NCBI GenBank assembly: GCA_036796695.1
Contig: DAIRCK010000012.1
Span: forward strand, 8,524 to 72,523
Source of the DNA: a bacterium
GTDB lineage: Bacteria; Hydrothermota; Tepidihabitantia; SM23-42; JAOAFX01
Direction of reading: 5' to 3'
DNA length: 64,000 nt
The notes below the pieces were generated by a model. The model worked only from the letters and a program-made list of their open reading frames with translations, was not told where the DNA came from and did no database searches. Below are positions 2-37,100 of the stretch, piece by piece (the first letter of the stretch is position 1; each line of letters opens with the position of its first letter). Both the position numbers and the translations under genes were made by a program.

Positions 2-733
2 GGACCACCAGGTGGAGAGTCACCCCTTTATGTCATAGAAACCGGTCAGGATTCTCTATCTCCATTCTGTCTCCATCGGGATGGGAAAATTACCTATACC
101 AACTACTCAGTGGATTATGCAAATAGCGAACTATCCTATGAACTTTCTTTCCTTGATCCGACCTTCCCATTCCATAAAATAAAGGGAACCGCATATTTTG
201 AAGGCACGAGCAATAGAAACTATGAACTCTGGATAAATGGTGTAAAGAAACATTCCTTTGTCGTGCGACCAAATCAGGCATATAATTTTGAGGCGCTCAT
301 TCCCAGGGAGTTATATCAAAATAATCGTCGGGTTACATTGACAATAAAGAATCCCAGCAATACTGGTGTCTGTCTTGCAGGCTTGAGTGTGTATCGGAAA
401 CCAGCAAAGACACCGGGTGGTGGTCCACAATCCCTGGCTGAAAGGAAGATTGATGACCTGATTTCAATAAATCCCAATCCCTTCAAAGGAAAGGTGGAAA
501 TCAGATACACGATGCAGGATACACGATACAGGATACGGGATAGAAGTTTGAAGATTTATGATGCAACAGGCAGATTGGTCAAACAATTTAACCATTTAAC
601 CAATTGTTCATTTAACCAGGTTGTGTGGGATGGAACTGATGATAACGGACAGCAACTACCTGATGGTGTCTATTTTATTCATCTGAAGACCGAGGAAAAG
701 GAAATCACGAAGAAGGCGGTTATGTTGCAGTAA
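2..733 (+). CDS. Secreted protein, 5'-partial (frame is open to the window edge), with a T9SS C-terminal sorting domain
   Basis: Frame 2 has no stop back to nt 2. The C-terminus ...NPNPF...IRY...LKIYDATGRLV...VWDGTDDNGQQLPDGVYFIHL...KKAVMLQ is a typical Por/T9SS CTD. Confidence 0.7.
   Translation, partial: GPPGGESPLYVIETGQDSLSPFCLHRDGKITYTNYSVDYANSELSYELSFLDPTFPFHKIKGTAYFEGTSNRNYELWINGVKKHSFVVRPNQAYNFEALIPRELYQNNRRVTLTIKNPSNTGVCLAGLSVYRKPAKTPGGGPQSLAERKIDDLISINPNPFKGKVEIRYTMQDTRYRIRDRSLKIYDATGRLVKQFNHLTNCSFNQVVWDGTDDNGQQLPDGVYFIHLKTEEKEITKKAVMLQ
504..545 (+). repeat. Six imperfect heptanucleotide repeats (atacacg/atgcagg/atacagg...) inside the T9SS CTD coding sequence
   Basis: The 7-nt periodicity is visible in the sequence. 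A 17-mer (ggatacacgatgcagga) is shared with the array at 4942-5039. Confidence 0.6.
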
Positions 734-778: not shown

Positions 779-2521
779 ATGAAAATGAGATCTTCATTCA
801 CTTTTTGTCTGTTGATTTGTCTCATCTCATCAGGAACCAGTATCACTTTTCGCAGGGTAGTAGATATTCCAGATGTGGGGGCGTGGCAAAGGGTCCTGGC
901 ATTTGATACTGACCATGATGGCAAACAAAACCTCATTTTTGACGAAAATCACCCTAATTATAGAGTGATTACCATTTGGGAATATGATAACTATGACCGG
1001 TATTTCTGCGAGGATACAGTTACCTATCCTTTGAATGGATTTATCCCAGTATTTGGTGTTGGTTATCTGGATACAGATTCATTGGTAGATATGGTTGGGA
1101 CTACTAACGGCCTCTGGCCGTATCCAATATATGTCTTTGAGTCGCCAACATATCATTCAAATCCAAAAAATATTGTCTGGCAGGATAGCTTATTTGGAAA
1201 CAATGGCGGTAGTTACATAACCGACCTTGACCAGGATGGGTTAAAAGAAATAATTATTGGATACGGGCAAGGCTGGACTCGGATGTATGAAAATGCTGGT
1301 GATAATCGGTATTCACTGGTCTGGCAAGATAAATCCTACGCTGTCGGGAATGTTATCAATGGTGATTTTGATTTAGACGGCAAAATTGAACTTATTCCTG
1401 GCGGTGACGGGTATGGGGAGGTGTGGGTCTGGGAATGCATCGGTAATAATCATTACCAACTGGTTTTTCAAGATACCCTCCCGTGGGTCAACAACTATGA
1501 TGTTTTTTCCGCCCATGATATGGATGGGAATGGTAAACCGGAATTTTTGTTTACTTCGGTGCATTATTCTCAGGGAAGAGCCTGGCTCTATCTGTATGAA
1601 ACGATTGGTGATAACAATTATGATTGGTGTCTTGTTGATTCAATGACTAATTTACCAATAAGTCTGGGTAGGCAAACGAGTGCGTGTGGTGATGTTGATG
1701 CTGATGGCAGGGAGGAAATTGTCTGGTCAACTTTTAACCAGTGGCATATTTATAAGGCAGTTGGTATTCATCAATATCAAAAAATTTATAGTAGCAGCTG
1801 GACAACCCATGAGTCTAAAATGATGAATGTTTGTGATTTGAATGGAAACGGTTATCCTGAAGTCATTGAGTCTTGGACAGTGTTATATAATACTGGTACA
1901 ACTATCTGGGAGATTGCGGGTGTGCATATTATCCAGCCGAATTATGGTTATATTTTGCATCCTGGAGAAGACTATCAAATTGCCTGGCAGAGATTTGACC
2001 CACCAGGTGCAGATTCATTTGCTTTATTCTTTTCTTTTGATAATGGCAATACCTATGATACAATTGCCTTGGGAATTCCAGGTAGTGATACTACCTATCA
2101 ATGGATTGTGCCCAATGTCATCTCTGACTCCTGCAAGATAATGATCTGGGCTTATGGGCCTCCAAGACCGGGTGAGCAACGACCCCGGGGCATTGTCTGG
2201 GATTTTGGTGATTTCAAGATTAGGCCGGGCTCAGATGTTGCTGAGACCCAATACCGACCAGCATATTATAACCTCAGGATTTCACCGAATCCAGTACGAA
2301 ATGAGAACCTGAGAATCCAGTATTCAGTGCCGAAATTATCAAAAGTGAAACTCGCCATTTATAACACCCTGGGTCAGTTAGAACAGGTGCTAATTGATAA
2401 AGATATGGCACCAGGAATTTATGAATTAAATCTGAGGCAAAATCTGCCAAATGGCATCCATTTTCTGCAATTGTCTGCAGATAAAAAGACAATCACTGAA
2501 AAGGTGGTGATAATAAGATGA
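779..2521 (+). CDS. FG-GAP (integrin-alpha-like beta-propeller) repeat protein with signal peptide and T9SS C-terminal domain, paralog A
   Basis: Repeated D-x-D-x-D-G motifs (DHDGKQNL, DLDQDGLKE, DFDLDGKIE, HDMDGNGKPE, GDVDADGREE, CDLNGNGYPE). The N-terminus is hydrophobic and the CTD reads ISPNPVRNENLRIQY...AIYNTLGQ. Confidence 0.8.
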   Translation: MKMRSSFTFCLLICLISSGTSITFRRVVDIPDVGAWQRVLAFDTDHDGKQNLIFDENHPNYRVITIWEYDNYDRYFCEDTVTYPLNGFIPVFGVGYLDTDSLVDMVGTTNGLWPYPIYVFESPTYHSNPKNIVWQDSLFGNNGGSYITDLDQDGLKEIIIGYGQGWTRMYENAGDNRYSLVWQDKSYAVGNVINGDFDLDGKIELIPGGDGYGEVWVWECIGNNHYQLVFQDTLPWVNNYDVFSAHDMDGNGKPEFLFTSVHYSQGRAWLYLYETIGDNNYDWCLVDSMTNLPISLGRQTSACGDVDADGREEIVWSTFNQWHIYKAVGIHQYQKIYSSSWTTHESKMMNVCDLNGNGYPEVIESWTVLYNTGTTIWEIAGVHIIQPNYGYILHPGEDYQIAWQRFDPPGADSFALFFSFDNGNTYDTIALGIPGSDTTYQWIVPNVISDSCKIMIWAYGPPRPGEQRPRGIVWDFGDFKIRPGSDVAETQYRPAYYNLRISPNPVRNENLRIQYSVPKLSKVKLAIYNTLGQLEQVLIDKDMAPGIYELNLRQNLPNGIHFLQLSADKKTITEKVVIIR

Positions 2522-5214
2522 AGATAATCATTGGATTTTTGGTATCTCTATTATTTTTAGAAATTGGGTTAAGCCTTGAAAATAATGCTTTTATCGTGGA
2601 CACAAACATTGTCTATTCTTTTGCCCGTTACCATCAGAAAAATCCCTGCATTGGGTTTGATGGTATGAATAGTCTTGTTGTCTGGGAGGATTATCGGGAT
2701 ACCACAGTAGATATCTATGGTGCGCGGATAACAGAATCAGGGATGGTTCTTGATCCTGCTGGAATACTGATTTCATATGCCCGCAATGACCAATATAAAC
2801 CTGCGGTTGCTTCTGGTCTGGGAAATTATCTGGTTGTCTGGGAAGACTCAAGAGGAGGTTCAGAGATTTATGGGGCACGGATCACATCCAGTGGTTTAGT
2901 CCTTGATACCGCTGGAATTGCTATCACATCTACACCAAATTCCCAGGTGCGACCTGCGGTTGCCTTTGATGGCACAAATTATTTTGTGGTCTGGCAGGAC
3001 AATCGGAGTGGTGTATCTTTTGATATCTATGGGGCAAGGGTCACTACAGAAGGTGTGGTCATTGATACTTCAGGGATAATGATTACTTCAGCGCCAAAGG
3101 ACCAGGAATCACCAGTGGTTGGTTTTGATGGGGTAAACTATTTTGTCATCTGGCAGGACTGGCGCAATGACCCAGGAACTTATACCAATTCTGATATTTA
3201 TGGTGCTCGGGTGACACAGTCAGGGGTTGTGCTTGATACTGGAGGAGTTCAAATTTGTGGTGCATTGGATAACCAATATTTGCCGCATTTAGATTTTGAT
3301 GGCACGAATTATCTGGTGGTATGGGAGGATTACCGAAGCGGGATATACTCAGATATCTATGGCACCCGGGTTACACCATCTGGAATGATTATTGATACCA
3401 ATGCCATTGCCATCTCTGTGGCTGAGAATTATCAGACTGCGCCCCGGGTTACCTATGCTGGGGATAACTACTTTGTCATCTGGGCAGACCAGCGCACAGG
3501 TTCATATCCGGATATTTACGGTGCACGGGTGAGCCCTTCTGGTGTAGTCCTTGACACTACCGGGATTAAGGTAACAGACCTTCCTTTTGCCCAATATATG
3601 CCTGCGATAGGCTTTAATCATAACTATTTTATTGCCCTGTGGCAGGACTTTCGGAATAGTGACCTTTCTGATATTTATGGGGCAAGGATAATGTTTACGG
3701 GAAATGTGATAGATACAGCCGGCATTCTCATCTCCACTGAGGCAAATTTGCAGGAAGAGCCCCAGGTTGCTTTTGATGGTACAAATTATCTCCTTGTGTG
3801 GCAGGATTGGCGCAATGATGCGGGTGACCGCAGGAATGCAGATATATATGGCATCAGAATTTCAGCAAGTGGTGCAATCCTTGATTCCGCTCCAATTGCC
3901 ATCTGCACTGCGATAAACAATCAGGTCCATCCGAGGATTGATTTTGATGGGATAAACTATCTTGTGGTCTGGGAGGATTGGCGTTATAGTCCTTTTGAGA
4001 ATAGTGATATTTATGGGGTTCGGGTCAGTCCTTCAGGTGTGATAATTGATTCGGTTGATATTTTAATCTCCTCTGCACCAAGAAATCAGAATACCCCATC
4101 AGTTTGTTTTGGGGGCACAAATTATCTTGTGGTCTGGAAGGATTGCCGAAATTACTATTATGGAGACATTTATGCCACGCGTGTAACAACCTCAGGAATT
4201 GTGCTTGATTCTGCAGGTATCCCCATTTCCACTGGAGGTTCTAAGGCAAATCCCGAGGTTTCTTATGATGGGACAAACTATTTTATAGTCTGGCAGCAGA
4301 AGGATTATATGGGTTGGGATGATATTTATGGCGCGCGGCTTAACCCGGGCGGGAATCTTATAGATACGCTCGCAAAACCAATATCAACTGCTCCTTATGA
4401 CCAGATAAACCCTTCCATTGCCTTTGATGGTGTGAATTATTTTATAGTATGGCTGGATGCCCGGGGATTTCCACCACCTGATACTGATATATACGGTGCA
4501 CGGGTCTCATCCACAGGGATTGTCCTTGACACCTCAGGAATACCCCTTGCTACTTCAAATTATAGCCAGCATAACCCGAGTGTGTTATGGGGTGGTGCAG
4601 ATTATCTGGTATTATACAGTGAATGGCGGTATACGCAGCCAGCCAATGGATGGGATATTTATGGTCTGAGAGTATCCCCTTCGGGCATAATCATTGATTC
4701 ATTTGCAATTACGAACAAACCTGGTGATCAGATATCGCCTGCCCTAACAAAAGGCCCTGGTGAGCAGATTTTGATTACCTATTCAGGTTATGCTGATTCG
4801 GTTAACAATCATATTGCAAGAACCCAGCGAATCTGGGTTGAATACTTTCCACCTGTGGGCACCAGCGAGAAGATTCAAAAGTTGCCAAACAAACTGATTG
4901 CAATATATCCGAATCCATTCAGAGAAAAATTGATAATCAGATACATGATACAGGATGCAGGATTTATAATACAGGATACACGATGCAGGAGTGAAGTACT
5001 CAGTAGCCAGTATCCAGTAGCCAGTATAAAGATTTATGATGTGGATGGTAGAATGGTTCGTGATTTTTCTCGGTTAACGGTAGTCGGTGAACGGTCAACG
5101 ATTCTCTGGGATGGAACTGATGATAATGGACAGCAACTACCTGATGGTGTCTATTTCTTAAAACTGAATGTCGGCAATGAAACGATCACAACGAAGGCGG
5201 TTCTGCTGAGATAG
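2518..5214 (+). CDS. Secreted protein with about 13 tandem ~50-aa PD40/TolB-like beta-propeller repeats (consensus DIYGARVT-SG-VLD--GI-I------Q--PAVAFDGTNY-VVW-D-R) and a T9SS C-terminal domain
   Basis: The repeat periodicity can be read directly from the translation. The start overlaps the upstream stop (ATGA). The CTD ends DGVYFLKL...KAVLLR. Confidence 0.75.
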   Translation: MKIIIGFLVSLLFLEIGLSLENNAFIVDTNIVYSFARYHQKNPCIGFDGMNSLVVWEDYRDTTVDIYGARITESGMVLDPAGILISYARNDQYKPAVASGLGNYLVVWEDSRGGSEIYGARITSSGLVLDTAGIAITSTPNSQVRPAVAFDGTNYFVVWQDNRSGVSFDIYGARVTTEGVVIDTSGIMITSAPKDQESPVVGFDGVNYFVIWQDWRNDPGTYTNSDIYGARVTQSGVVLDTGGVQICGALDNQYLPHLDFDGTNYLVVWEDYRSGIYSDIYGTRVTPSGMIIDTNAIAISVAENYQTAPRVTYAGDNYFVIWADQRTGSYPDIYGARVSPSGVVLDTTGIKVTDLPFAQYMPAIGFNHNYFIALWQDFRNSDLSDIYGARIMFTGNVIDTAGILISTEANLQEEPQVAFDGTNYLLVWQDWRNDAGDRRNADIYGIRISASGAILDSAPIAICTAINNQVHPRIDFDGINYLVVWEDWRYSPFENSDIYGVRVSPSGVIIDSVDILISSAPRNQNTPSVCFGGTNYLVVWKDCRNYYYGDIYATRVTTSGIVLDSAGIPISTGGSKANPEVSYDGTNYFIVWQQKDYMGWDDIYGARLNPGGNLIDTLAKPISTAPYDQINPSIAFDGVNYFIVWLDARGFPPPDTDIYGARVSSTGIVLDTSGIPLATSNYSQHNPSVLWGGADYLVLYSEWRYTQPANGWDIYGLRVSPSGIIIDSFAITNKPGDQISPALTKGPGEQILITYSGYADSVNNHIARTQRIWVEYFPPVGTSEKIQKLPNKLIAIYPNPFREKLIIRYMIQDAGFIIQDTRCRSEVLSSQYPVASIKIYDVDGRMVRDFSRLTVVGERSTILWDGTDDNGQQLPDGVYFLKLNVGNETITTKAVLLR
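4942..5039 (+). repeat. About 14 imperfect heptanucleotide repeats (atacagg/atgcagg/atacacg, then tagccag/tatccag) inside the CTD coding sequence of the PD40-like protein
   Basis: The 7-nt periodicity spans about 98 nt. It encodes the atypical insert MIQDAGFIIQDTRCRSEVLSSQYPVASIK between conserved CTD strands. Confidence 0.6.
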
Positions 5215-5227
5215 GTAGAATCTTTTT

Positions 5228-5253
5228 GGGGTGGGAGGTAAACCTCCCACCCC
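5228..5253 (+). promoter_or_regulatory. Hairpin (ggggtgggagg/taaa/cctcccacccc) between the stop of the upstream gene and the RBS of FG-GAP paralog B; positional analog of the hairpin at 741-770
   Basis: Perfect 11-bp inverted repeat, followed by GGGAGG and ATG ATG. Confidence 0.5.
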
Positions 5254-5261
5254 AGGGAGGA

Positions 5262-6995
5262 ATGATGAGACTCTTAATAATTGTGTTTGTATTATGTGGC
5301 TTTATTTCTTTTGGTGTGTGCATCAGTTTTCGCAAGACTGCTGAAATTCCAAGTGGTGCGATGGATAAAGCCTTTGGTTTTGATACTGACCACGATGGCA
5401 AACAAAATTTAGTATTAAGTTTTAATGGAATACAATTTTGGGAGCACATTGGTTTTGACCGATATATCTTAGAAGATACCGCCACACCATCGTGCTTATG
5501 TGACATAGGTTCTTCAGACTCAGATTCATTAACCGATATGGTCGGCAACATAAACGGTTTATGGCCCTATCCAATATATGTCTATGAATCGGCCACTTAT
5601 AATTCCAATCCCACGATTATCGTCTGGCAGGATAGCGGATTTATGAACATTGGTAACAGTTACATTACTGACCTTGACCAGGATGGGTTAAAAGAAATAC
5701 TCTTTGGATACTCTCCGATAGAACCTCCAAGATGGCGCACCTGTGTTTATGAAAATATTGGTGATAATCAGTATTCTCTGGTCTGGCAGGATACGACCTA
5801 TGCTATCTGGAGTGCTATCAATGGTGATTTTGACCTGGATGGTCAAACTGAATTTATCGCTGGTAGTGGCGGGTCTGGTTGGGTTTGGGTCTGGGAATGC
5901 GTAGGTAATAATCATTACCAGGTGGTTTTTCGAGATACCCTCCCGTGGCCTAACAACACTGATGTTTTTTCCGCCCATGATATGGATGGTAATGGTAAAC
6001 CGGAATTTTTGTTTACTTCAGTGGATTATTTTCATGGAAGAGCCTGGCTTTATCTGTATGAAACGATTGGTGATAACAACTATGATTTCTTTTTAGTTGA
6101 TTCAATTACAGGGATTCCTGGTAGTATGTTCTATCAAACCAGCATTTGCGGTGACATTGATGCTGATGGTAGGGAAGAAATCGTCTGGTCAACTTTTAAT
6201 CAATGGCATATTTATAAGGCAATTGGTATTCATCAATATCAAAAAATTTATAGCAGTGCCTGGACACTCCATGATTATAAAGTGATGAATGTCTGTGATT
6301 TGAATGGAAACGGGTATCCTGAGGTCATTGAGGCCTGGTCCCAGAATGGAATACCATCTATTGAAGGGACAACCATCTGGGAGATTGAGGGTGTGCATAT
6401 TATCCAGCCGAATTATGGTTATATTTTACATCCTGGAGAAGACTATCAAATTGCCTGGCAGAGATTTAACCCGCCCGGTGCAGATTCATTTGCCTTATTC
6501 TTTTCTTTTGATAATGGCAATACCTATGATACAATTGCCTTGGGAATTCCAGGTAGTGATACTACCTATCAATGGATTGTGCCCAATGTCATCTCTGACT
6601 CCTGCAAGATAATGATCTGGGCTTATGGGCCTCCAAGACCGGGTGAGCAACGACCCCGGGGCATTGTCTGGGATTTTGGTGATTTCAAGATTAGGCCGGG
6701 CTCAGATGTTGCTGAGACCCAATACCGACCAGCATATTATAACCTCAGGATTTCACCGAATCCAGTGCGAAATGAGAACCTGAGAATCCAGTATTCAGTG
6801 CCGAAATCATCAAAAGTGAGACTCGCGATTTATAATACTTTGGGTCAGTTAGAGGAGATGCTGGTGGATAAAGAGATAGCACCAGGGATTTATGAAATTG
6901 GATTAATAAATCCCTTGACAGACGGTGTCTATTTTGTAAAATTAACTACTGATGGAAAAATAATTACCAAAAAATGTGTGATATTAAAGAATTAA
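5262..6995 (+). CDS. FG-GAP repeat protein with T9SS C-terminal domain, paralog B of 779-2521
   Basis: Same architecture as paralog A. Nucleotides about 6379-6823 are almost identical to 1893-2340. The start was chosen at the ATG after the RBS; the ORF track begins at 5226. Confidence 0.8.
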   Translation: MMRLLIIVFVLCGFISFGVCISFRKTAEIPSGAMDKAFGFDTDHDGKQNLVLSFNGIQFWEHIGFDRYILEDTATPSCLCDIGSSDSDSLTDMVGNINGLWPYPIYVYESATYNSNPTIIVWQDSGFMNIGNSYITDLDQDGLKEILFGYSPIEPPRWRTCVYENIGDNQYSLVWQDTTYAIWSAINGDFDLDGQTEFIAGSGGSGWVWVWECVGNNHYQVVFRDTLPWPNNTDVFSAHDMDGNGKPEFLFTSVDYFHGRAWLYLYETIGDNNYDFFLVDSITGIPGSMFYQTSICGDIDADGREEIVWSTFNQWHIYKAIGIHQYQKIYSSAWTLHDYKVMNVCDLNGNGYPEVIEAWSQNGIPSIEGTTIWEIEGVHIIQPNYGYILHPGEDYQIAWQRFNPPGADSFALFFSFDNGNTYDTIALGIPGSDTTYQWIVPNVISDSCKIMIWAYGPPRPGEQRPRGIVWDFGDFKIRPGSDVAETQYRPAYYNLRISPNPVRNENLRIQYSVPKSSKVRLAIYNTLGQLEEMLVDKEIAPGIYEIGLINPLTDGVYFVKLTTDGKIITKKCVILKN

Positions 6996-10719: not shown

Positions 10720-12251
10720 AAAACCTCCTTTATCTTCACTCTACCAATCTTTTCAAAGATTGGCATCCTTATCTTTTCTCGTTTCATCTTTTTATCCTGT
10801 AAAATAAATCCCTTTATATCCTGTCTTTTAATAAATCCTGGCAGTTCTGCAGGCAAAGAATATTCTTTTAATAGTTCAATAACTTCAACAGGTATTCTAT
10901 TTTTATTAAAAATACATATCTCCTGGACCATCCCTATTGAGACTGCCTCACCATGTGAAAATCTCTTGTATTTGCCCATTTTTTCAATGATGTGCCCAAT
11001 CGTATGGCCAAAATTGAGGATTTCCCTTATCCCTTTCTCTTCAGTCTCATCATCTTTTATTATCCTACCTTTAATCATTACACATTCTTTTATAATCCTG
11101 AAAAGTGTTGCAGGATCGCGTTCCATTATCAATCCCTTTTTTTCTTTAAGGGTCCTAAATAGTTCCTCTGAGCTGATTATCCCATACTTTATAACCTCAG
11201 CAATACCATTGGAAAATTCTCTATCAGGAAGGGTCATAATCTTTTTAATATCACATACTACACATTCTGGTTGATAGAATGTTCCGAGCATATTCTTTCC
11301 ATATTTTGTATTTACTCCATTCTTACCACCTAACGCAGCATCAACCTGGCAGAGCAGGGTAGTTGGAATATATACAAGCTTGCAACCCCTTTTGAATGTG
11401 GATGCGACAAAACCAGCAATATCAGTAATCACACCACCACCAAGACCGAGTATTATATCCTGCCTTTGAAAATTTATCTTGAATAGGTATTCATAGATAC
11501 TCTCTACAGTTTTAATATTTTTGTATGCCTCACCATCGGGTATTATAAGATAATTAACTTCGTTATCCTGCCTTTTCAATGTCTTTGCCAAATCATCAAG
11601 GTAGAGTGCACCAACAAGTGGATTGGTTATTATAAAAATCCTTTTCTTTTTAAATAGAAGATGGCGATTAGAATCAAATATGATTATAACTGGATAGACC
11701 CTTGATTTTGTATGGATCATTATAGATTCACTCTGGTCAGGATAATCTATCTTCTTTAATTCCAATCTCTTTATTATTTCCCTGGCTACCAATTCCGGTG
11801 CCTTCTCTGTTGTATCAATCTTTATCTCAGCAAAATCATATATTCCTTTTCTCTGCTCCAGAAGATTAAAAAAATCTTTTTTTGATTTGACCAATGGCCT
11901 TGAACCATCCATTTTTATCCTCTTTAATAGAGTCTCTAAATTTGCATAAAGCTGGATAACCCTGCCTGTTTTTTTCAATATTTCACGATTCTTCTCATTC
12001 TTAACAATCCCTCCACCTGTCGCAATAACTACATTCTTCAATCCTTTTATTTTTTCCAGAACCCAGTGCTCTCTTTTCCGAAAATATTCTTCACCTTCCT
12101 TCTCAAAGATTTCTTTTATTGATCTCTGTTCCGCAAGTTCAATCATTCGGTCTGTGGAAAGATAACCAAAATTTAAATTTTCAGCAAGGATTCTACCGAT
12201 TGTATCCTTGCCAGTGCCCATAAATCCTATTAAGATTATGTTTTCAGACAT
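10701..12251 (-). CDS. aroKB: Bifunctional shikimate kinase (N-terminal) / 3-dehydroquinate synthase (C-terminal)
   Basis: The N-terminal P-loop GFMGTGKDTIG is AroK. The C-terminus (...GGGVITDIAGFVAS...LVYIPTTLL-QVDAALGGKNGVN...) is AroB. Confidence 0.85.
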   Translation of the reverse strand: MSENIILIGFMGTGKDTIGRILAENLNFGYLSTDRMIELAEQRSIKEIFEKEGEEYFRKREHWVLEKIKGLKNVVIATGGGIVKNEKNREILKKTGRVIQLYANLETLLKRIKMDGSRPLVKSKKDFFNLLEQRKGIYDFAEIKIDTTEKAPELVAREIIKRLELKKIDYPDQSESIMIHTKSRVYPVIIIFDSNRHLLFKKKRIFIITNPLVGALYLDDLAKTLKRQDNEVNYLIIPDGEAYKNIKTVESIYEYLFKINFQRQDIILGLGGGVITDIAGFVASTFKRGCKLVYIPTTLLCQVDAALGGKNGVNTKYGKNMLGTFYQPECVVCDIKKIMTLPDREFSNGIAEVIKYGIISSEELFRTLKEKKGLIMERDPATLFRIIKECVMIKGRIIKDDETEEKGIREILNFGHTIGHIIEKMGKYKRFSHGEAVSIGMVQEICIFNKNRIPVEVIELLKEYSLPAELPGFIKRQDIKGFILQDKKMKREKIRMPIFEKIGRVKIKEVLCKKFF

Positions 12252-13308
12252 CTTTAATCCTTTTTAAATATTGTTGATAATTCTTTTTCATATCCAGTAT
12301 ATTATCACCGCCAAATTTTTCACAAAATGCCAGGGCAAGGACATAGGCAAGCATTGATTCTGCAATTACACTGATCGCTTCAACTGCACAGACATCGGCT
12401 CTAAAGACTGGTGCAGGACAAGGTCTTTTATTCTTTATATCAAAAGATTTTAACGGATTCTGGAGTGTAGGGATCGGTTTTATATACAACCTTATAAAAA
12501 TCCTTTCTCCATTGCTCATACCACCCTCAATCCCACCTGCATTATTGGTCTTATGATAAAATCCCATTTTTTTATCATAAAATATCTTATCATGAACAGC
12601 AGAGCCATAATGCATTGATGAAAAGATCGCCTCTCCAATTTCAATCCCTTTTACTGAAGGTATTGATAGCATCGCCATACCAATCATACCATCAAGCCTC
12701 TTATCAAATTGTGTATAACTTCCAAGACCTGGACAGACACCATCAGCATAAACCTCAACAATCCCACCGAGTGTATCACCCCTTTGTTTTGCCTGGATTA
12801 TTAATCTTTTTATCTTATTTCTATCCTTTTCCTTTCCAATCTGTCTCACCTGTGAACTTATCGCTATATTAAATTCTTTAAGCAGGAGTTTAAACACCGC
12901 ACCTGCTGCAACCCTTGATACAGTCTCCCGTGCCGATGCCCTTTCAAGGACATCCTGGATATCTAAAAAACCAAATTTCAAAAGACCTGCAAAGTCTGCA
13001 TGGCCAGGTCTGGGAATGGTTATTGAATCTTTAGTTTTTTGTGATAAGAATTCATCCCTGCGATAGTCCTTATTTTTAATAAAGAGCGTTATAGGTGAAC
13101 CGATGGTTTTGCCCATCCTCACACCTGAAAGGATTTCAACAGGCTCTTCTTCCAGTTCCATCCTTTTGCTCCTGCCCATTCCCTGCTTTCGCCTCTTCAA
13201 TTCTTGTCTTATAAAATCAGGGCTGATCTTTAATCCTGCAGGGATTCCATCAATGATTACTGACATACCCTGATTATGTGATTCACCACCTGTTAACATC
13301 CTTATCAT
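12244..13308 (-). CDS. aroC: Chorismate synthase
   Basis: LTGGESHNQG....GRSKRMELEEE... and GGMSNGE motifs. Confidence 0.9.
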   Translation of the reverse strand: MIRMLTGGESHNQGMSVIIDGIPAGLKISPDFIRQELKRRKQGMGRSKRMELEEEPVEILSGVRMGKTIGSPITLFIKNKDYRRDEFLSQKTKDSITIPRPGHADFAGLLKFGFLDIQDVLERASARETVSRVAAGAVFKLLLKEFNIAISSQVRQIGKEKDRNKIKRLIIQAKQRGDTLGGIVEVYADGVCPGLGSYTQFDKRLDGMIGMAMLSIPSVKGIEIGEAIFSSMHYGSAVHDKIFYDKKMGFYHKTNNAGGIEGGMSNGERIFIRLYIKPIPTLQNPLKSFDIKNKRPCPAPVFRADVCAVEAISVIAESMLAYVLALAFCEKFGGDNILDMKKNYQQYLKRIKDV

Positions 13309-23921: not shown

Positions 23922-26063
23922 TTATAGTGATGAGAATTCCCCAGGATGGACTTTGAATAATCCAAAGCCCACAACAAAATTCCAGAGTATGAATATCAAA
24001 GATGTGTTTGGTATTCCAAGTATTGGAATGAAGAGTATTGTTGTAATCAATGCCCCAAAACTCGCACCAAAAAGGTCAGTGCCATAAAGGATAGCAGCTT
24101 TCGGTTCACCAGCAATCTTTATTGCCAGTGGAAAATACATACCCACAAGAAATCCACCGATGAATACTAAAAGGGCAATGATGTAATTTGCATAGGATCC
24201 ATTTGTAAGTGCGAAGAGTAAGATTATTAAAAAATAAATACCGATGGCGCATTGAGTTGCTGATAACATACAAAGGTTCTTCCGGGATAGAGCAGAAGAT
24301 TGAAAGGATTTTATAATCCTGATTGAAAACAGAGTTCCTGATGCGAGTCCAAACATAAATAAACCTATGATAATTCCTATCCAGTTATAGACATATCCAT
24401 ATAGCACCTGGAATAATATCAAGAGTATTATCTCAGATGATATCCCTGCGGCACCGGTGGTGAATACTGATAGATAAATGACCGTCTTGCGATGCAAGAA
24501 GAAAAAAACAGGAAGTAAAAGTAAGAAGAAAAATCCTGATGGGATATTAAAGATTTTTATGAATAATTTTTTAAGCCCTTCAGATGAAATTCCACCCCAT
24601 AATAAGGCGTTGAAATAATAACAAACAGGCTTTAAATCGGTATTGATATAAGGTGTTGTTTTTTCAATTGATTGATTGATATATTTAATCCTTTCTTCTG
24701 TTAAACTATAGTCAAAAAAATATTGATTTACATAAAGAAGAGCAAGATTCCTATCCTGGATATTTTTCTTTAAAACCTCTTTGATTTCCATTCCAATTTC
24801 ATAATCCATTGCAATATATGTTGCTTTAGAAACAGGGAGTATGTGGACACCTTTAAAGACCTGTTTTAGTGTATTCTTAATCGTGCCCAGAAACTGGCTA
24901 TAAACAGGGCTGAGGATATCGGGTGTATAATTGACTCTTATGCAGAATATACCGTCCTTATTGAGTCTACTTTTTGATTCCTGAAAAAATTTTAGGGTGT
25001 AGTATCTATTCAATTGGGCATTTATCGGGTCAGAAAGATTGATAATAATACAATCAAATTGTTCCTTTGTATTCTTTATGTAATATCGACCATCACCTAT
25101 AAGCACATTTACCCTGTTATCAGAAATCTTAGAACCAATATATTTTTTAGAGATTTCAATTATCTTCGGATCGAGTTCCAGATAATTCAATTTCTTAATT
25201 GAAGGATGTTTTAGGATCTCATTTATACCCCCACCCATCCCACCGCCGATAAACAAAACATCTTCAGGTTTTTTATGAACCAATAATGGATAATGGACAG
25301 CCTCCTCTGAAGAATAAATATCTGGATATGCAAAATCAAAGATTCCGTTTAAATAACAATTTATCTGGTCACCAGTTCTTGTTAAAATAATATTCCCGTA
25401 TTTTGATTCAAAGACATCAATAAGACTTTGATGGGGCATCTGGAGTTTTCTCAATTGAAATTCTATGTGATTTACACCAATAAGCAAAAATAACGAAAAT
25501 ATAGAAATTAGCAAAAAAATTCTTTTTTTGATACATAGGTATCCGGCAAATAACAATAATGATATGAGTATAATAAAAATCCCAGAAGGAGGGATAATGG
25601 ATATTAAAATAAAAGATAATATGATACCACCAAAAAAAGAACCGATACATTCAATAAAATATACCTTTTGTGGTTTTAAAATAAAAGAGGCAGCAGGAAA
25701 CAGGGCACCGAAAATGATACAGGACGGAGATAGTGTAATGAATGAAATCATTATTATCCTGTAGAAATCAATGAATTCACCGAATGGTATTGAAAGAATA
25801 CCTCGTGCACTCCTTATGAATATAAAAGAAAATGTCAAACAGAAACACAATAAAAATAGAAGATACGCATAATTTTTTTCCGACTTATTTCTGAAATTTA
25901 TTTTTGAATATACAAGACTTCCCAGCCCGGTCAATAAGAGCCACAGGCATAAAACAATACCTGAAATCAATTCATTGCTCGAGAAAAACCCAAGCATTTC
26001 GCGGATGATTATTGTTTGGGCAATAACCGCCGCAATACCAGAGATAAATACTGCAACCTGCAT
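23922..26063 (-). CDS. Polytopic membrane protein with a central spermidine-synthase-like (polyamine aminopropyltransferase) domain
   Basis: More than 10 hydrophobic helices flank VLFIGGGMGG...LELDP-II...VLIGDGR-Y....FD-II-NL-DP, the SpeE-type Rossmann fold. Confidence 0.7.
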   Translation of the reverse strand: MQVAVFISGIAAVIAQTIIIREMLGFFSSNELISGIVLCLWLLLTGLGSLVYSKINFRNKSEKNYAYLLFLLCFCLTFSFIFIRSARGILSIPFGEFIDFYRIIMISFITLSPSCIIFGALFPAASFILKPQKVYFIECIGSFFGGIILSFILISIIPPSGIFIILISLLLFAGYLCIKKRIFLLISIFSLFLLIGVNHIEFQLRKLQMPHQSLIDVFESKYGNIILTRTGDQINCYLNGIFDFAYPDIYSSEEAVHYPLLVHKKPEDVLFIGGGMGGGINEILKHPSIKKLNYLELDPKIIEISKKYIGSKISDNRVNVLIGDGRYYIKNTKEQFDCIIINLSDPINAQLNRYYTLKFFQESKSRLNKDGIFCIRVNYTPDILSPVYSQFLGTIKNTLKQVFKGVHILPVSKATYIAMDYEIGMEIKEVLKKNIQDRNLALLYVNQYFFDYSLTEERIKYINQSIEKTTPYINTDLKPVCYYFNALLWGGISSEGLKKLFIKIFNIPSGFFFLLLLPVFFFLHRKTVIYLSVFTTGAAGISSEIILLILFQVLYGYVYNWIGIIIGLFMFGLASGTLFSIRIIKSFQSSALSRKNLCMLSATQCAIGIYFLIILLFALTNGSYANYIIALLVFIGGFLVGMYFPLAIKIAGEPKAAILYGTDLFGASFGALITTILFIPILGIPNTSLIFILWNFVVGFGLFKVHPGEFSSL

Positions 26064-28972: not shown

Positions 28973-29032
28973 AGTTTTAATGAATATATGTATAGAATTA
29001 TTTTTAAAATTTTTTTAACAGGAGTTTTAATT

Positions 29033-30442
29033 ATGGCACAAAACTGCAATGCAGGAGAATACCGCGAATCGCCCCATGCTGGTTCCTGGTATCCGGGTAG
29101 GGAAAAAGACCTTCAGGAAGTGATAAAGACCTATCTTAAAAATGCCAAGGCAAAGGTTGTCGGTGAAATATATGGACTCGTTTCACCCCATGCAGGTTAT
29201 ATGTATTCAGGACCATTTGCAGCATTCTCTTATAAACTGCTGGAAAATAAAGAATTTGATGCTGTAATTGTAATAGGACCAAGCCACCGCTATGGGTTTT
29301 ATGGTGTTTCTGTTGATAAAATGGCAGGTAGAAAAACACCTTTAGGCAAAGTAGAATTTGATACAAAACTTGCGGACAAAATAATAAAACAGAATTCAAA
29401 GGTAATAAAATATGAACCAAAAGCACATATTGATGAGCATTCGGTTGAAATACAGATACCATTTCTCCAGATGGTCTTAAAAAGATTGAAACTTATTGAA
29501 ATCGTTATGGGCTCTCAGGATTATAACACCTGCAATGCACTTGCTGATGCGATTGTAAATGCTACAAAAGGAAAAAAAATTTTAGTAATTGCGAGTTCTG
29601 ACCTATCCCATTACCATAACCAGGAGACTACAGAAAAACTTGATAATCTTGTGATAGATGCAATTGAAAAATTTGACCCTGAACTTCTCTATAAAAGACT
29701 CGCTTCTGACAGTTGTGAAGCCTGTGGCGGTGCACCGATAATTACAACGATGCTTGTGGCAAAGAGAATGGGTGCAGATAAAGCAAGGGTTTTGATTTAT
29801 GGAACGAGTGGTGATATAACCGGTGATTATGCACAGGTCGTTGGCTATCTCTCTGCGGCATTTTTTAAAGGGAATGAGCAAGGACATAAAAAAGTTGGCA
29901 TTGACCTTGGTTTTACTGAAGAAGAAAAGAAGATATTAAAGGATATCGCAAGGAAGACGATTGAGGCAGTAGTTAAGGGTAAAAAACCACCTGAATTCAA
30001 GGATGTGCCGGAAAAGTTGAAAGAGCCTTATGGTATATTTGTGACGCTCACCAAACATGGAAATTTAAGGGGTTGTATCGGTCATATCATTGCTGACGAA
30101 CCTCTTTATAAAATCTGCCAGGAAATGGCAAAGGCTGCAGCACTCAATGACCCGCGGTTCAACCCCGTGAATGAAAAAGAACTTCCTGATATTGAAGTTG
30201 AGATTTCGGTTCTCACACCAATGGAAAAAGTTAAAGATTTTAAAGATATTGTCATTGGCAGGGATGGTCTGTTTATCCGTCGGGGATACTATAGCGGTCT
30301 ACTTCTACCACAGGTGGCGACTGATTATGGATGGAATGTTGAAGAATTCCTCGAACAAACCTGTGTGAAGGCAGGACTTCCTGAAGACGCTTATAAATTG
30401 AAAGATACAGAAATCTATAAATTTTCTGCCCAGATTTTTTAG
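29033..30442 (+). CDS. Fusion of AmmeMemoRadiSam system protein B (MEMO1-like, N-terminal) with an AMMECR1 domain (protein A, C-terminal)
   Basis: The N-terminus (SPHAGSWYPG...GLVSPHAGYMYSGPFAAFSY...VIVIGPSHR) is the Memo fold. The C-terminus (...LRGCIGHII...NDPRFNPV...) is AMMECR1. Confidence 0.75.
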   Translation: MAQNCNAGEYRESPHAGSWYPGREKDLQEVIKTYLKNAKAKVVGEIYGLVSPHAGYMYSGPFAAFSYKLLENKEFDAVIVIGPSHRYGFYGVSVDKMAGRKTPLGKVEFDTKLADKIIKQNSKVIKYEPKAHIDEHSVEIQIPFLQMVLKRLKLIEIVMGSQDYNTCNALADAIVNATKGKKILVIASSDLSHYHNQETTEKLDNLVIDAIEKFDPELLYKRLASDSCEACGGAPIITTMLVAKRMGADKARVLIYGTSGDITGDYAQVVGYLSAAFFKGNEQGHKKVGIDLGFTEEEKKILKDIARKTIEAVVKGKKPPEFKDVPEKLKEPYGIFVTLTKHGNLRGCIGHIIADEPLYKICQEMAKAAALNDPRFNPVNEKELPDIEVEISVLTPMEKVKDFKDIVIGRDGLFIRRGYYSGLLLPQVATDYGWNVEEFLEQTCVKAGLPEDAYKLKDTEIYKFSAQIF

Positions 30443-34664: not shown

Positions 34665-37100
34665 ATGAATATATATCTGATTTTCTTTTTCTTTTCAGGC
34701 ATTTCGGGCTTAATCTATGAAGTGGTCTGGGCAAGATTACTGTTACTTGCCTTTGGCTCAACAACTGTAGCAAATACCCTTGTGATAACTGCATTTATGT
34801 TGGGACTCGGTTTTGGTGGATTATATTTTGGCAATTATGTTGATCGAGAAAAGTCTCCCTATAAAATATTCTCATATCTTCAACTGGGTATTGGTTTATC
34901 TTCTTTTTTATTGCTATTCTTTCTTCCTCAATTACCACGATTGTCTAAAGCCATTCTAAATAATACACACTTAAGCCAGGCTGGTTATTTATCTTTTATA
35001 TTTATCATTACTTTTATCATATTATTCATTCCCACATTCTTAATGGGTGGAACATTTCCAGTAATGACGAAACTCTATGTGCGGGATGAAGATAAAATCA
35101 AAAATGGAATTGGATTGTTATACGGACTCAATACGTTTGGCGGGGTCATTGGTGCATTATCTGCAGGATTTTTTCTTATTAGAAATTTAGGACTTTCACT
35201 AACCCAGTCGATTGCAATTTTTATAAATTTTGCAATTGGCATTTTTATGTTTCATTCTCATCCAAAAATATCAACAGAAAATAGAGATTCTAAATCTGTT
35301 CTACAGGATTTCAAGCAGGCAGGTATCGAAAAATTAAAAAGATACCTGCCCATCATTGCTGGACTCACGGGATTTGCCAGCCTTGCCTGCGAAATCTTCT
35401 GGATCCGTGCATTATCGATATTTCTAACCAATTCCACCTACACCTTTACAATAATTTTGATTGTTTATTTAAGCGGAATTTTTATTGGAAGTATTATATT
35501 TGCAAAATTGTCAAAAAAATCAAACCTGATTAATATCTTTGCAACAGTCCAGATCCTTACAGGTTTATATATAGTAATCGGCTGCCTATTTTTAAACAGA
35601 CTGCCTGGATTATTATTTGGAATCCAGAATATCCTTGAAATTCCTTTTTTTAGAATGTTTTTGCCTGCACTAATTCTTTCTATTTTTGTCGTTCTCATTC
35701 CTACAATATTTATGGGTATAAGTTTCCCACTTATCTGTTCTCTATATAGTCAGGAGATTAAACACCTTGGCAACAAACTGGGCAATGTTTATTTTACAAA
35801 TACACTGGGCAGTGCACTCGGTTCTTTATTGGCAGGTATCTTTTTTATAAACTATCTTGGCGTCATAAGGGGATTAATTGCTGTTGGTTTGATCAATTTA
35901 CTGATCGGCTTTTTTTTCACACTGTATCTGAAAAACAGATCATTGAATATTATAATTTTTGTTTGTGCGATAATTATTTCTTTTTATTCAATACAAAATA
36001 AATTCATCCTTCCACCATCTATTTATCATTCACCCACCAGACAGGACCGTGTTCTATATTACAAAGAAACAAGGGATGGAACCATAATTGTGAGTGAAGA
36101 TCGCCTTACAGGCATAAGATCCTGCTATGTAAATAACAGCGCTGTAATTGGAACAACCTATGATGCCATAAAGGTTGTAAAAATGCTTGGGAATCTTCCT
36201 TTTATTTTCAATCCTGGTGCAAAAGATATATTGGTCATAGGTTTTGGGGTCGGTATCACGACCTCAAGCATTGCCCGTTATAATATAAAGAAAATAGACT
36301 GTGTTGAAATTTGCCCGGGTTTGCGCGAGGCGGCAAAATATTTCACAAATTTCAATAATTACATCTTCAAAAATCCATTAATACATTTTATTGCTAATGA
36401 TGGAAGAAATTTTTTGCTCCTGAGTAATAAGAAATATGATGCCATTTCCTGTGACCCCACACATCCAATTTTAGGCAGTGGTAATCTTTATACTAAGGAA
36501 TATTTTATGCTATGCAAAGAACATTTATCTCAAAATGGTGTAGTATGTCAGTATCTACCCTTCCATAAATTGAGTCCTGAGGAATTTAAATCTCTAATAA
36601 AAACCTTTGCTATAGTCTTTCCATATACCTCAATCTGGCTTGGTTATTCTCACGGTGTGCTTATAGGAACAAATGCTCCACAGACGATAAAATTTGAGTC
36701 CTTAAAAAATCTAAGAGATGAAATGCTCAATGACCCATATCTTCTTGCAGTCTCTTATCTTCTTGATACAGAGGCGATTAATAATTTCAGCACTGAGGCA
36801 AAAATTAATACTGATAACCATCCTGTCATAGAATTCTTCACACCATTAAGTCTGAGGAATGAAAACTGGGAGCAGAACATAAATGCATTATTAAAAAACA
36901 GAGTTGATGTCAGAAAAACCATTGAAGGTATCGACGATTTAGAAAAACTAAACCGGTACCTGCAGGGTCAAAATTATTTTATTGAAGGGTTAATTTATCA
37001 AAACAGAAGAGATAGGAAGTCATTGATCCAGGCGTTTAGAAAGGCGCTGGAGATAAATCCGGAAAATAATGAAATAAAGTTATTTCTGCAATCCCAGTGA
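34665..37100 (+). CDS. Membrane-anchored spermidine-synthase-like protein with C-terminal TPR-like region; paralog of 23922-26063
   Basis: An N-terminal multi-TM region and the SpeE-like core (ILVIGFGVGITT...VEICPGL...HFIANDGRNFL...YDAISCDPTHP). Confidence 0.7.
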   Translation: MNIYLIFFFFSGISGLIYEVVWARLLLLAFGSTTVANTLVITAFMLGLGFGGLYFGNYVDREKSPYKIFSYLQLGIGLSSFLLLFFLPQLPRLSKAILNNTHLSQAGYLSFIFIITFIILFIPTFLMGGTFPVMTKLYVRDEDKIKNGIGLLYGLNTFGGVIGALSAGFFLIRNLGLSLTQSIAIFINFAIGIFMFHSHPKISTENRDSKSVLQDFKQAGIEKLKRYLPIIAGLTGFASLACEIFWIRALSIFLTNSTYTFTIILIVYLSGIFIGSIIFAKLSKKSNLINIFATVQILTGLYIVIGCLFLNRLPGLLFGIQNILEIPFFRMFLPALILSIFVVLIPTIFMGISFPLICSLYSQEIKHLGNKLGNVYFTNTLGSALGSLLAGIFFINYLGVIRGLIAVGLINLLIGFFFTLYLKNRSLNIIIFVCAIIISFYSIQNKFILPPSIYHSPTRQDRVLYYKETRDGTIIVSEDRLTGIRSCYVNNSAVIGTTYDAIKVVKMLGNLPFIFNPGAKDILVIGFGVGITTSSIARYNIKKIDCVEICPGLREAAKYFTNFNNYIFKNPLIHFIANDGRNFLLLSNKKYDAISCDPTHPILGSGNLYTKEYFMLCKEHLSQNGVVCQYLPFHKLSPEEFKSLIKTFAIVFPYTSIWLGYSHGVLIGTNAPQTIKFESLKNLRDEMLNDPYLLAVSYLLDTEAINNFSTEAKINTDNHPVIEFFTPLSLRNENWEQNINALLKNRVDVRKTIEGIDDLEKLNRYLQGQNYFIEGLIYQNRRDRKSLIQAFRKALEINPENNEIKLFLQSQ

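Follow-up and report, generated by a model that had tools for sequence, protein, structure and literature searches.

Related propeller proteins

Among the described systems that come closest to the protein analysed here are the 'bangle' lectins PLL, PHL, CV39L and BP39L (PDB 5c9o, 6gxs, 6gxr), which are single beta-propellers of ~360–370 aa with several tryptophans per blade. In PLL and PHL, the sugar sites are located between blades and involve Trp stacking (PMC5584973, PMC6943638). The Fuc site of PHL comprises Val172, Thr194 and the Trp pair Trp199 and Trp214, and its Gal site Arg186, Glu188, Gln251, Trp202 and Trp259. Two tandem seven-bladed propellers followed by a type IX secretion system (T9SS) C-terminal sorting domain (CTD) are found in PorZ (PDB 5m11), which belongs to the T9SS attachment complex and serves to present anionic LPS to the sortase. 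The C-terminal propeller of CylK (PDB 7ron/7roo) is part of an alkylating enzyme whose catalysis needs an N-terminal Ca-binding domain that supplies Arg105 (PMC8916777). At the level of sequence models, TIGR04275 ("beta-propeller repeat protein", beta_prop_Msarc) describes a generic 40-position repeat, for which neither a function nor an architecture is stated. The 898-aa protein reported here shares features with several of these systems, and its architecture is a new variant on a known propeller type.

Gene, predicted export signals and repeat layout

The whole gene lies at 2518..5214 (+), stop codon included, of the 64-kb stretch of DNA that was analysed (the window), where the open reading frame list gives it as encoding an 898-aa precursor; a gene call for the same 898-aa protein is carried by JGI contig Ga0326321_1000045. 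It overlaps the FG-GAP gene upstream by 4 nt, with start and stop codon interlocked as ATGA (2518–2521), and it is part of a four-gene run of T9SS cargo, with several further CTD-bearing proteins encoded within the window. Other CTD-bearing propeller proteins are neighbours in 30 of the 79 related loci. FG-GAP and BNR neighbours were rejected as conserved operon partners, since they recur in the two closest relatives only (L002, L083).

The initial annotation had taken the protein to be T9SS cargo, and the CTD that this requires is confirmed. This domain, at 4903..5211 (+) (residues 796–898, with a low-confidence insertion at 815–830), scores 32.2 bits against PF18962 (cutoff 27) and 31.9 bits against TIGR04183 (cutoff 23), i.e., above the curated cutoffs that mark a type A cargo. 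It also matches the T9SS CTD chains 8glk_D (E 1.6e-4) and 8glj_D in the PDB, and a PF13860 FlgD_ig match of 28.5 bits falls in the same region. At the N-terminus, residues 1 to ~21 (MKIIIGFLVSLLFLEIGLSLE; 2518..2580, +) read as a probable Sec signal peptide, in which Lys at position 2 is followed by a hydrophobic run without a lipobox Cys; AF2 gives this hydrophobic stretch (MKIIIGFLVSLLFL...) as a low-confidence helix at 2–16.

Residues 42–741 consist of 13 units of ~53 aa with a mean pairwise identity of 45% (range 25–60%) and the consensus P.V.FDG.NYLVVW.D.R....DIYGARV..SG.VLDT.GI.I..A...Q. The tandem array that had been read from the sequence is confirmed by 13 [DE]IY[GA] anchors, located by regular expression at a spacing of 51–57 residues, although the gap between the Arg and DIY, originally given as 5–9 residues, is actually 3–9. 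In tblastn searches, the consensus peptide matches each unit with E 3e-9 to 2.5e-22, whereas outside the units no match in the 64-kb window is better than E 0.65, so that the repeat is far beyond chance.

The earlier estimate of ~13 (13 to 14) blades over residues ~45–760 agrees with the 13 units, to which a degenerate 14th unit directly after unit 13 is to be added (residues 742–778, PALTKGPGEQILITYSGYADSVNNHIARTQRIWVEYF; 4741..4851, +). This unit, with AF2 strands at 738–745, 751–762 and 765–776, completes blade 14; its family consensus is PALA.G.G.Q.LI.YSGW...N..RIWGK.YP, with Y755, R771, W773 and G774 at least 93% conserved. Unit 1 is preceded by a half unit (residues 24–41, AFIVDTNIVYSFARYHQK; 2587..2640, +), which resembles the repeat tail ...G.VLD..GI.IS.A...Q and provides one extra strand (AF2, 33–35). 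Its family consensus is GEFLIDT.I.Y.PA...Q; across 58 homologs, F25 and D28 never vary, while T29 and Q40 are at least 95% conserved. The 14th unit is joined to the CTD by a flexible linker at 4852..4902 (+) (residues 779–795), with pLDDT <50 at 780–788.

Predicted fold

The tandem double propeller suggested by the blade count is supported by structure prediction, which gives 7+7 blades. Units 1–7 (2641..3756, +) are inferred to form the first seven-bladed propeller, and residues 22–413 modelled alone fold with pLDDT 94.1 and pTM 0.93. Units 8–13 (3757..4740, +), delimited by tblastn and the unit boundaries, supply the canonical blades of the putative second propeller, each with four strands in the AF2 model. 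The strand tally, 1 + 13 × 4 + 3 = 56, corresponds to 14 blades of four strands. For the mature body (~residues 22–778), the prediction is a rigid pair of seven-bladed beta-propellers in tandem, and in such a model the strand2–strand3 and strand4–strand1 loops, which hold the variable positions, must lie on one face of the ring. Support for this structure is good; the function discussed below is inferred.

Relationship to known repeat families

The motif had been likened to the TolB PD40 repeat, but this assignment finds no support: PF07676 gives no match at E ≤ 1 for the whole protein or at E ≤ 10 for each of the 13 units. The proposed Pfam comparison with PD40, SBBP, Kelch and BNR likewise yields nothing above threshold, either for the protein or for single units. 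Matches to LRR_TTSS, InlK_D2 and glycoside hydrolase family 43 (PF04616; 27.9 bits vs. a cutoff of 32.2, residues 259–336 only) were rejected as artefacts, being weak sums in which no single stretch is significant, as were DUF3659, Peptidase_M23_N and PurS in homologs. Two models with precomputed matches on many homologs, PF27743 and PF27161, were considered as new repeat models and dismissed, as they correspond to CTXL_C and HI_0983, both 'faint'.

TIGR04275 covers the core of this repeat, its positions 20–34 aligning to LVVW.D.R...DIY, and it is matched by all 49 of the 49 homologs scanned (best 3e-37). Residues 22–413 give E 2.4e-11 and 43.2 bits, and the full-length protein 21.6 bits, both under the model's cutoff of 85 bits; TIGR04275 would therefore not name this protein. 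The cutoff is passed by 6 of the 16 relatives tested individually, and a homolog that is 46% identical over 97% coverage (P0002) reaches 103 bits, so that the protein shows both significant similarity to the model and homology to proteins passing its cutoff. Judged by sequence, its family, which TIGR04275 touches, is very large and functionally unstudied. Overall, the initial annotation's interpretation is supported in part. The core of the repeat is already covered by this model, and nothing relevant was found in the literature searched for the repeat motifs, TIGR04275 and the Pfam accessions.

A second relationship points to the PLL/CV39L lectins. The NF052350 model (CV39L family lectin) matches residues 22–413 with 27 bits and E 2.2e-6, the alignment spanning residues 83–357 and model positions 61–324 of 334, and it is matched by 9 of the 49 homologs (best E 2.5e-19; E 4.4e-13 for homolog P0100). 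The equivalog cutoff of 350 bits is reached neither by the window fragment nor by the best relative. In the reverse direction, searching CV39L with the unit profile gives six DGN.YLV.WQD matches at periodic spacing. In the PDB, the full-length, single-unit and seven-unit profiles matched only CTDs and, marginally, CV39L (E 0.55, 0.0074 and 0.017), and a phmmer search of P0100 against the PDB returned FlgD-like CTD matches only, with no lectin alignment. By these profile matches, the repeat is distantly homologous to the PLL/CV39L sugar-binding lectins. Both are built on seven-bladed propellers of ~50-residue blades with a W motif, whereas the propeller protein has 14 blades in a chain of 898 aa rather than a single propeller of ~360–370 aa, one invariant Trp per unit rather than several, an identity of ~12% to the lectins, and an additional probable signal peptide and CTD; the lectin papers mention no T9SS domain.

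Family size, symmetry and evolution

The family comprises 22,120 clusters at 50% identity, with many paralogs per genome and a unit count fixed at 13. Members also occur without a CTD, and the family extends to Myxococcota and Actinomycetes, lineages in which no T9SS is known. Longer homologs are fused only with Kelch, Big_9/cadherin, PKD, CARDB, Big_13 and Cys-rich TNFR/ephrin-like repeats, and no catalytic domain was fused to the propeller module in any homolog examined.

Within the chain, the symmetry is nearly complete. Units 1–12 are interchangeable across homologs (diagonal fraction 0.13 vs. 0.077 by chance), and unit 13 alone has a recognisable positional identity, in 33 of 56 homologs. 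Over 753 blades, ~30 of the 53 unit positions are at least 80% conserved, with the Trp of VVW.D at 98%; the conserved framework includes W15, D17, R19, D29, Y31, R34, D43 and Q56 of the unit. At the variable positions, S, Y, N, D, G and W are common. A search over homologs for a blade-specific conserved site returned 2 unit-specific residues only, both of which look like alignment register effects. Concerted evolution inside the protein was ruled out, given a unit similarity of 114 within and 119–124 between proteins. Compared with an 85%-identical relative, dN/dS is 0.14–0.34, and 0.19–0.34 in the variable loops, which rules out diversifying selection on these loops; the low values indicate conservation of the loops within a lineage.

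Alternative functions

A secreted propeller could act as an enzyme with an active site on the propeller face, e.g., a polysaccharide lyase or hydrolase, or a CylK/Vgb-like lyase or alkylase, exported to degrade polymers. Propeller enzymes have asymmetric active sites, however, and no blade-specific residue is conserved here beyond the repeat consensus, blades 1–12 are interchangeable, and no homolog examined carries a catalytic domain. CylK itself is 14% identical to the propeller protein, the profile searches of the PDB returned no match to it at E ≤ 10, and a CylK-type Ca-binding beta-roll domain is absent, with only ~20 residues between the signal peptide and the repeats; we thus regard an enzyme as improbable. 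To about the same degree improbable is a structural surface protein (a coat, S-layer-like layer or spacer), whose repeats would be kept for folding and self-assembly only and which would have no specific ligand. The extreme conservation of the framework, the lack of a unique site, the many paralogs per genome, the tandem paralogs at 11 of the 79 related loci and T9SS export would all suit such a role, but the purifying selection on the variable loops between close relatives (dN/dS 0.19–0.34) argues against it, as do their Ser/Tyr/Asn/Asp/Trp-rich composition, which is as expected of binding surfaces, the homology to true lectins and the fusion of the module to adhesion-type domains.

Structure comparison raises two further readings. 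For the full-length model, PorZ (5m11) tops the Foldseek list (E 6e-13) and has the same order of two seven-bladed propellers and a CTD, which, together with a CTD-bearing C25 peptidase as neighbour in 9 of the 79 related loci, could indicate a PorZ analogue presenting anionic LPS to the sortase. The NF052228 (PorZ) model, however, scores 15.3 bits vs. a cutoff of 260 and aligns to residues 835–893, i.e., the CTD only, outside which there is no sequence relationship; the C25 neighbours reach at most 56 bits vs. 420 for PorU, so that they were rejected as PorU; and several paralogs per genome, members without a CTD and the occurrence in Myxococcota and Actinomycetes make this reading extremely unlikely. 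When the first propeller is isolated, TolB (4r40_C, 1.1e-8) and PD40-type S9 peptidase propellers lead by Foldseek E-value, TIGR02800 is matched by 1 of the 49 homologs (E 3.4e-5), and the motif logic is superficially akin to PD40 (W..DG ... R ... DIY), all of which would fit a TolB-type propeller binding peptides or proteins in the periplasm or at the surface. Against this, the Foldseek matches cover half of the module with low TM-scores, the unit length differs, TolB is six-bladed, and the PD40 HMM finds no match; this reading is very unlikely, if somewhat less so than the PorZ analogue.

Proposed function and significance

The reading that we favour, with a little more confidence than doubt, is a non-catalytic multivalent binding platform built on the two seven-bladed propellers and either displayed on the surface or released, most likely for glycans. 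The protein would be exported via Sec and then the type IX system; we infer that the signal peptide is cleaved and that the CTD is removed after export, leaving the body anchored on the cell surface or released. By analogy with the PLL/CV39L 'bangle' lectins, glycans may bind in equivalent pockets between adjacent blades. The ~30 framework positions per unit, including the Trp of VVW.D and the conserved D, R, Y and Q, would make the blade junctions alike, and the variable Ser/Tyr/Asn/Asp-rich loop positions would set the specificity of each paralog.

A broader and rather doubtful extension is that such 'tandem bangle lectins' constitute a major class of surface lectins or adhesins in prokaryotes that has so far gone unrecognised. 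The 7+7 scaffold would be fixed and offer up to 14 (or 28) equivalent sites between blades, and Ser/Tyr-rich loops on one face would reprogram the specificity from paralog to paralog. They would be deployed via the T9SS in WOR-3 and other FCB-group candidate phyla and via Cys-rich stalks in Myxococcota, and their targets would be glycans carried by particles, prey or kin.

Should the lectin-like reading be wrong, the protein is just another secreted beta-propeller repeat protein. Its near-perfect internal symmetry is unusual among natural propellers and resembles that of designed symmetric propellers, so that the family could serve studies of repeat-protein evolution and provide engineering scaffolds. 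If the lectin-like reading is true, a testable function, i.e., multivalent glycan or surface recognition, could be assigned to tens of thousands of proteins from Myxococcota and uncultured FCB-group phyla that are now annotated as 'hypothetical' or 'T9SS sorting domain-containing', which would also open a way to study the attachment of these organisms to particles or to other cells.

Repeat architecture and predicted fold

The propeller gene (2518..5214, plus strand, from the ORF list) encodes 898 residues with 13 [DE]IY[GA] anchors spaced 51–57 residues apart. Mutual alignment places 13 canonical units at residues 42–741, with a mean pairwise identity of 45% and the consensus P.V.FDG.NYLVVW.D.R....DIYGARV..SG.VLDT.GI.I..A...Q; their nucleotide sequences share 60–78% identity. 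The consensus peptide matches each of the 13 units (E 3e-9 to 2.5e-22) and nothing in the rest of the window better than E 0.65. The array is preceded by an N-terminal half unit (residues 24–41), which corresponds to the ...G.VLD..GI.IS.A...Q tail of the repeat, and followed by a degenerate unit (residues 742–778), which lacks this tail. The protein starts with a probable Sec signal peptide, and its C-terminus carries a T9SS type A C-terminal sorting domain (CTD) that passes both curated cutoffs, i.e., 32.2 bits for PF18962 (cutoff 27) and 31.9 bits for TIGR04183 (cutoff 23), and is similar to solved T9SS CTD structures. The aligned units and the CTD thus bear out two claims of the initial annotation, namely a tandem repeat and a T9SS cargo.

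AlphaFold2, run with a 58-sequence alignment, gave an all-beta full-length model (pLDDT 89.9, pTM 0.78) with strands of about 8, 8, 8, and 4 residues in each unit. The strand tally is 1 (half unit) + 52 + 3 (degenerate unit) = 56, i.e., 14 four-stranded blades. The top Foldseek matches of this model are the tandem double propellers PorZ, Elp2, tricorn, GH74, and Utp proteins. Residues 22–413 (half unit plus units 1–7), modelled alone, reached pLDDT 94.1 and pTM 0.93, suggesting one compact domain. Based on these three observations, the predicted body is read as 7 + 7 blades, in agreement with the double propeller and blade count proposed earlier; where exactly one ring ends and how the N-terminal strand docks are tentative.

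Relation to known families

No Pfam model covers the repeat in scans of the protein, its units, and homologs. Two unfamiliar precomputed accessions, PF27743 and PF27161, were dismissed as faint chance matches. With the NCBIfam model TIGR04275 (beta_prop_Msarc, "beta-propeller repeat protein"), the full-length protein reaches 21.6 bits, under the cutoff of 85 bits, and its first half 43.2 bits (E 2.4e-11). Scored one by one, 16 relatives gave 26–128 bits, 6 of them above the cutoff, and 49 of 49 relatives match in a bulk scan. These scores show that the repeat is already captured by a curated model, but only generically. The CV39L family lectin model NF052350 matches the first propeller at E 2.2e-6 (residues 83–357 on model positions 61–324 of 334) and 9 of the 49 relatives (best E 2.5e-19), it also matches the homolog P0100 at E 4.4e-13, and a search of CV39L with the unit profile gave six periodic DGN.YLV.WQD matches. 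At the sequence level, we therefore regard the similarity to the characterised CV39L/PLL lectins as real.

Conservation and selection

Across 58 proteins, which together supply 753 units, conservation reaches 80% or more at about 30 of the 53 unit positions (W15 98%, G39 99%), and the variable columns (1, 16, 18, 20–28, 36–38, 40, 45, 53–55, 57) are rich in S, Y, N, D, G, and W. Column conservation across homologs equals the conservation pooled across units, and only two unit-specific conserved residues were found, both of which look like alignment register effects. A unit of the window protein is best matched by its positional counterpart in a homolog in 13% of cases vs. 7.7% by chance, with the exception of unit 13 (33/56). 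Equal conservation and interchangeable units thus reveal no asymmetric site of the kind seen in propeller enzymes.

In an up-down meander such as this blade, the strand2–strand3 and strand4–strand1 loops would lie on one face, and these loops hold most of the aromatic-rich variable positions, with a variable-length insertion among them. Comparison with an 85%-identical relative gave dN/dS values of 0.14 (framework), 0.19 (these two loops), 0.34 (strand3–strand4 loop), and 0.44 (outside the units). The loops thus vary among distant paralogs yet are kept within a lineage.

Size and spread of the family

A single-unit profile retrieved 22,120 representatives of 50%-identity clusters at E ≤ 1e-3, of which 4,572 also passed E ≤ 1e-30. 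Exactly 13 matched units occur in 131 of the best 150 representatives (lengths 622 to 2303 aa), and 25 units, i.e., two modules, in 2 of these 150. By hmmsearch, 73 of 88 repeat-bearing ORFs in 79 genome loci have 13 units; by tblastn, the count is 13 in 58 of 91 modules and 12 in 19 of 91. The unit number is strikingly constant across the family. The homologs P0127 (2303 aa) and P0188 (1892 aa), with 25 matched units each, contain two complete 13-unit modules and possibly four propellers per chain. One protein of the representative library has 18 units. Longer homologs add Kelch, Big_9/cadherin, PKD, FIMAH, CARDB, Big_13, TNFR/ephrin-like, and myxobacterial Cys-rich repeats; no added catalytic domain was found in those examined.

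The hosts are mainly WOR-3, and the nearest genome match is a syntenic WOR-3 MAG (55% identity). Other hosts are Edwardsbacteria, Zixibacteria, Stahlbacteria, TA06, Cloacimonadota, Eisenbacteria, Gemmatimonadota, and Bacteroidales, cultured Myxococcota (Vitiosangium, Hyalangium, Stigmatella), and some Actinomycetes MAGs. Several genomes hold at least three copies, and 11/79 loci (L004, L039, L046, L074, and others) hold adjacent genes with a 12–13-unit module each, a sign that the family has expanded locally. A full 13-unit homolog with a CTD-region match lies on a 4-kb contig of a Thermoplasmata archaeon MAG (JBHIBK010000185.1, locus L014), an assignment that may reflect binning contamination. 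Archaeal members may be genuine, as "Msarc" in the TIGR04275 name presumably hints at Methanosarcina proteins as the source of the first model of the repeat.

Genomic context

The window derives from a 71-kb JGI metagenome contig, on which the propeller gene stands in a row of four co-directional T9SS cargo genes: a BNR-type gene (989-aa protein; tail at 110..733, plus strand), an FG-GAP gene (779..2521, plus strand), the propeller gene, and a second FG-GAP paralog. The propeller ATG overlaps the stop codon of the FG-GAP gene upstream of it (ATGA, 2518–2521), an arrangement suggesting that the cargo genes are co-transcribed and translationally coupled. The spacer that separates the BNR-type gene (end 733) from the FG-GAP gene contains a GC-rich stem-loop at 740–771 with a perfect 14-bp stem. 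Nine of its pairs are G-C and a run of T follows on the minus strand, so that it may serve as a terminator or attenuator inside the row. A segment comprising a CTD end, the intergenic spacer, and the whole FG-GAP+CTD gene is duplicated about 4.46–4.48 kb apart (621–2521 and 5102–6995) with 76–88% nucleotide identity overall; a patch of 97% (1895–2194 vs. 6366–6665) suggests that the two FG-GAP paralogs on either side of the propeller gene have recently undergone gene conversion. These cargo-gene neighbours are conserved only in the two closest relatives. Other CTD-bearing propellers (Kelch, LVIVD, YncE-like) are neighbours in 30/79 loci, and C25 peptidases with a CTD in 9/79; the latter were rejected as PorU (at most 56 bits vs. 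a cutoff of 420).

Converging on the cargo genes is a compact aromatic amino-acid biosynthesis operon (7302 to about 15754, minus strand) encoding DAHP synthase, TrpA, TrpB, type II dehydroquinase, a shikimate kinase–DHQ synthase fusion, chorismate synthase, shikimate dehydrogenase, PRAI, and chorismate mutase/prephenate dehydrogenase. Elsewhere in the window are a 1084-aa T9SS CTD protein (44572–47826, minus strand), with no Pfam match at E ≤ 1e-5 across its roughly 1000-residue body, a 484-aa Memo-like + AMMECR1 domain fusion (28988–30442, plus strand), and two unusually long proteins (713 aa, 23922–26063, minus strand; 811 aa, 34665–37100, plus strand), in each of which large unannotated regions accompany a single spermidine/spermine synthase domain.

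Novelty and proposed function

The initial annotation had likened the repeat to PD40/TolB blades. TolB and PD40-type S9 peptidases do lead the Foldseek matches of residues 22–413 by E-value, but with TM-scores of only 0.45–0.57, and the PD40 HMM gives no match whatever to the repeat, so that the analogy is one of general propeller likeness rather than membership. This negative result is strengthened by a 599-aa CTD protein (11123–12922, minus strand, in L081/L082) that adjoins the homolog P0039 and has a genuine PD40 match and faint BNR, Sortilin-Vps10, and Reg_prop matches, showing that true PD40 cargo coexists with this family and is recognised by the HMM. A PD40/TolB-type propeller is thus improbable, and we consider it highly improbable that the protein is an analogue of PorZ, one of the double propellers matched by Foldseek. 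An enzyme, for which propellers offer precedents with an asymmetric site that these units lack, is unlikely; a surface structural protein without a ligand seems equally unlikely.

With a beta-propeller repeat and a T9SS tail, a generic curated model, and distant kinship to known lectins, the protein is not categorically new. The earlier suggestion of an undescribed family holds only in part: the literature searched contained no description of the fixed 13+1-unit, 7+7 architecture, of blade interchangeability, or of the family's sheer size in uncultured FCB-group phyla and Myxococcota. While we hold the structural and family statement with high confidence, a binding function is putative, with about an even chance of being correct. 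In PLL/PHL lectins, sugars are held in inter-blade pockets by Trp stacking (PMC5584973, PMC6943638), the kind of site proposed here. Two rigid seven-bladed rings would present equivalent inter-blade sites formed by the conserved framework, with paralog-specific loops on one face. The best-supported overall reading, which we favour slightly, is that the protein may be an exported, non-catalytic, multivalent lectin-type binding protein.
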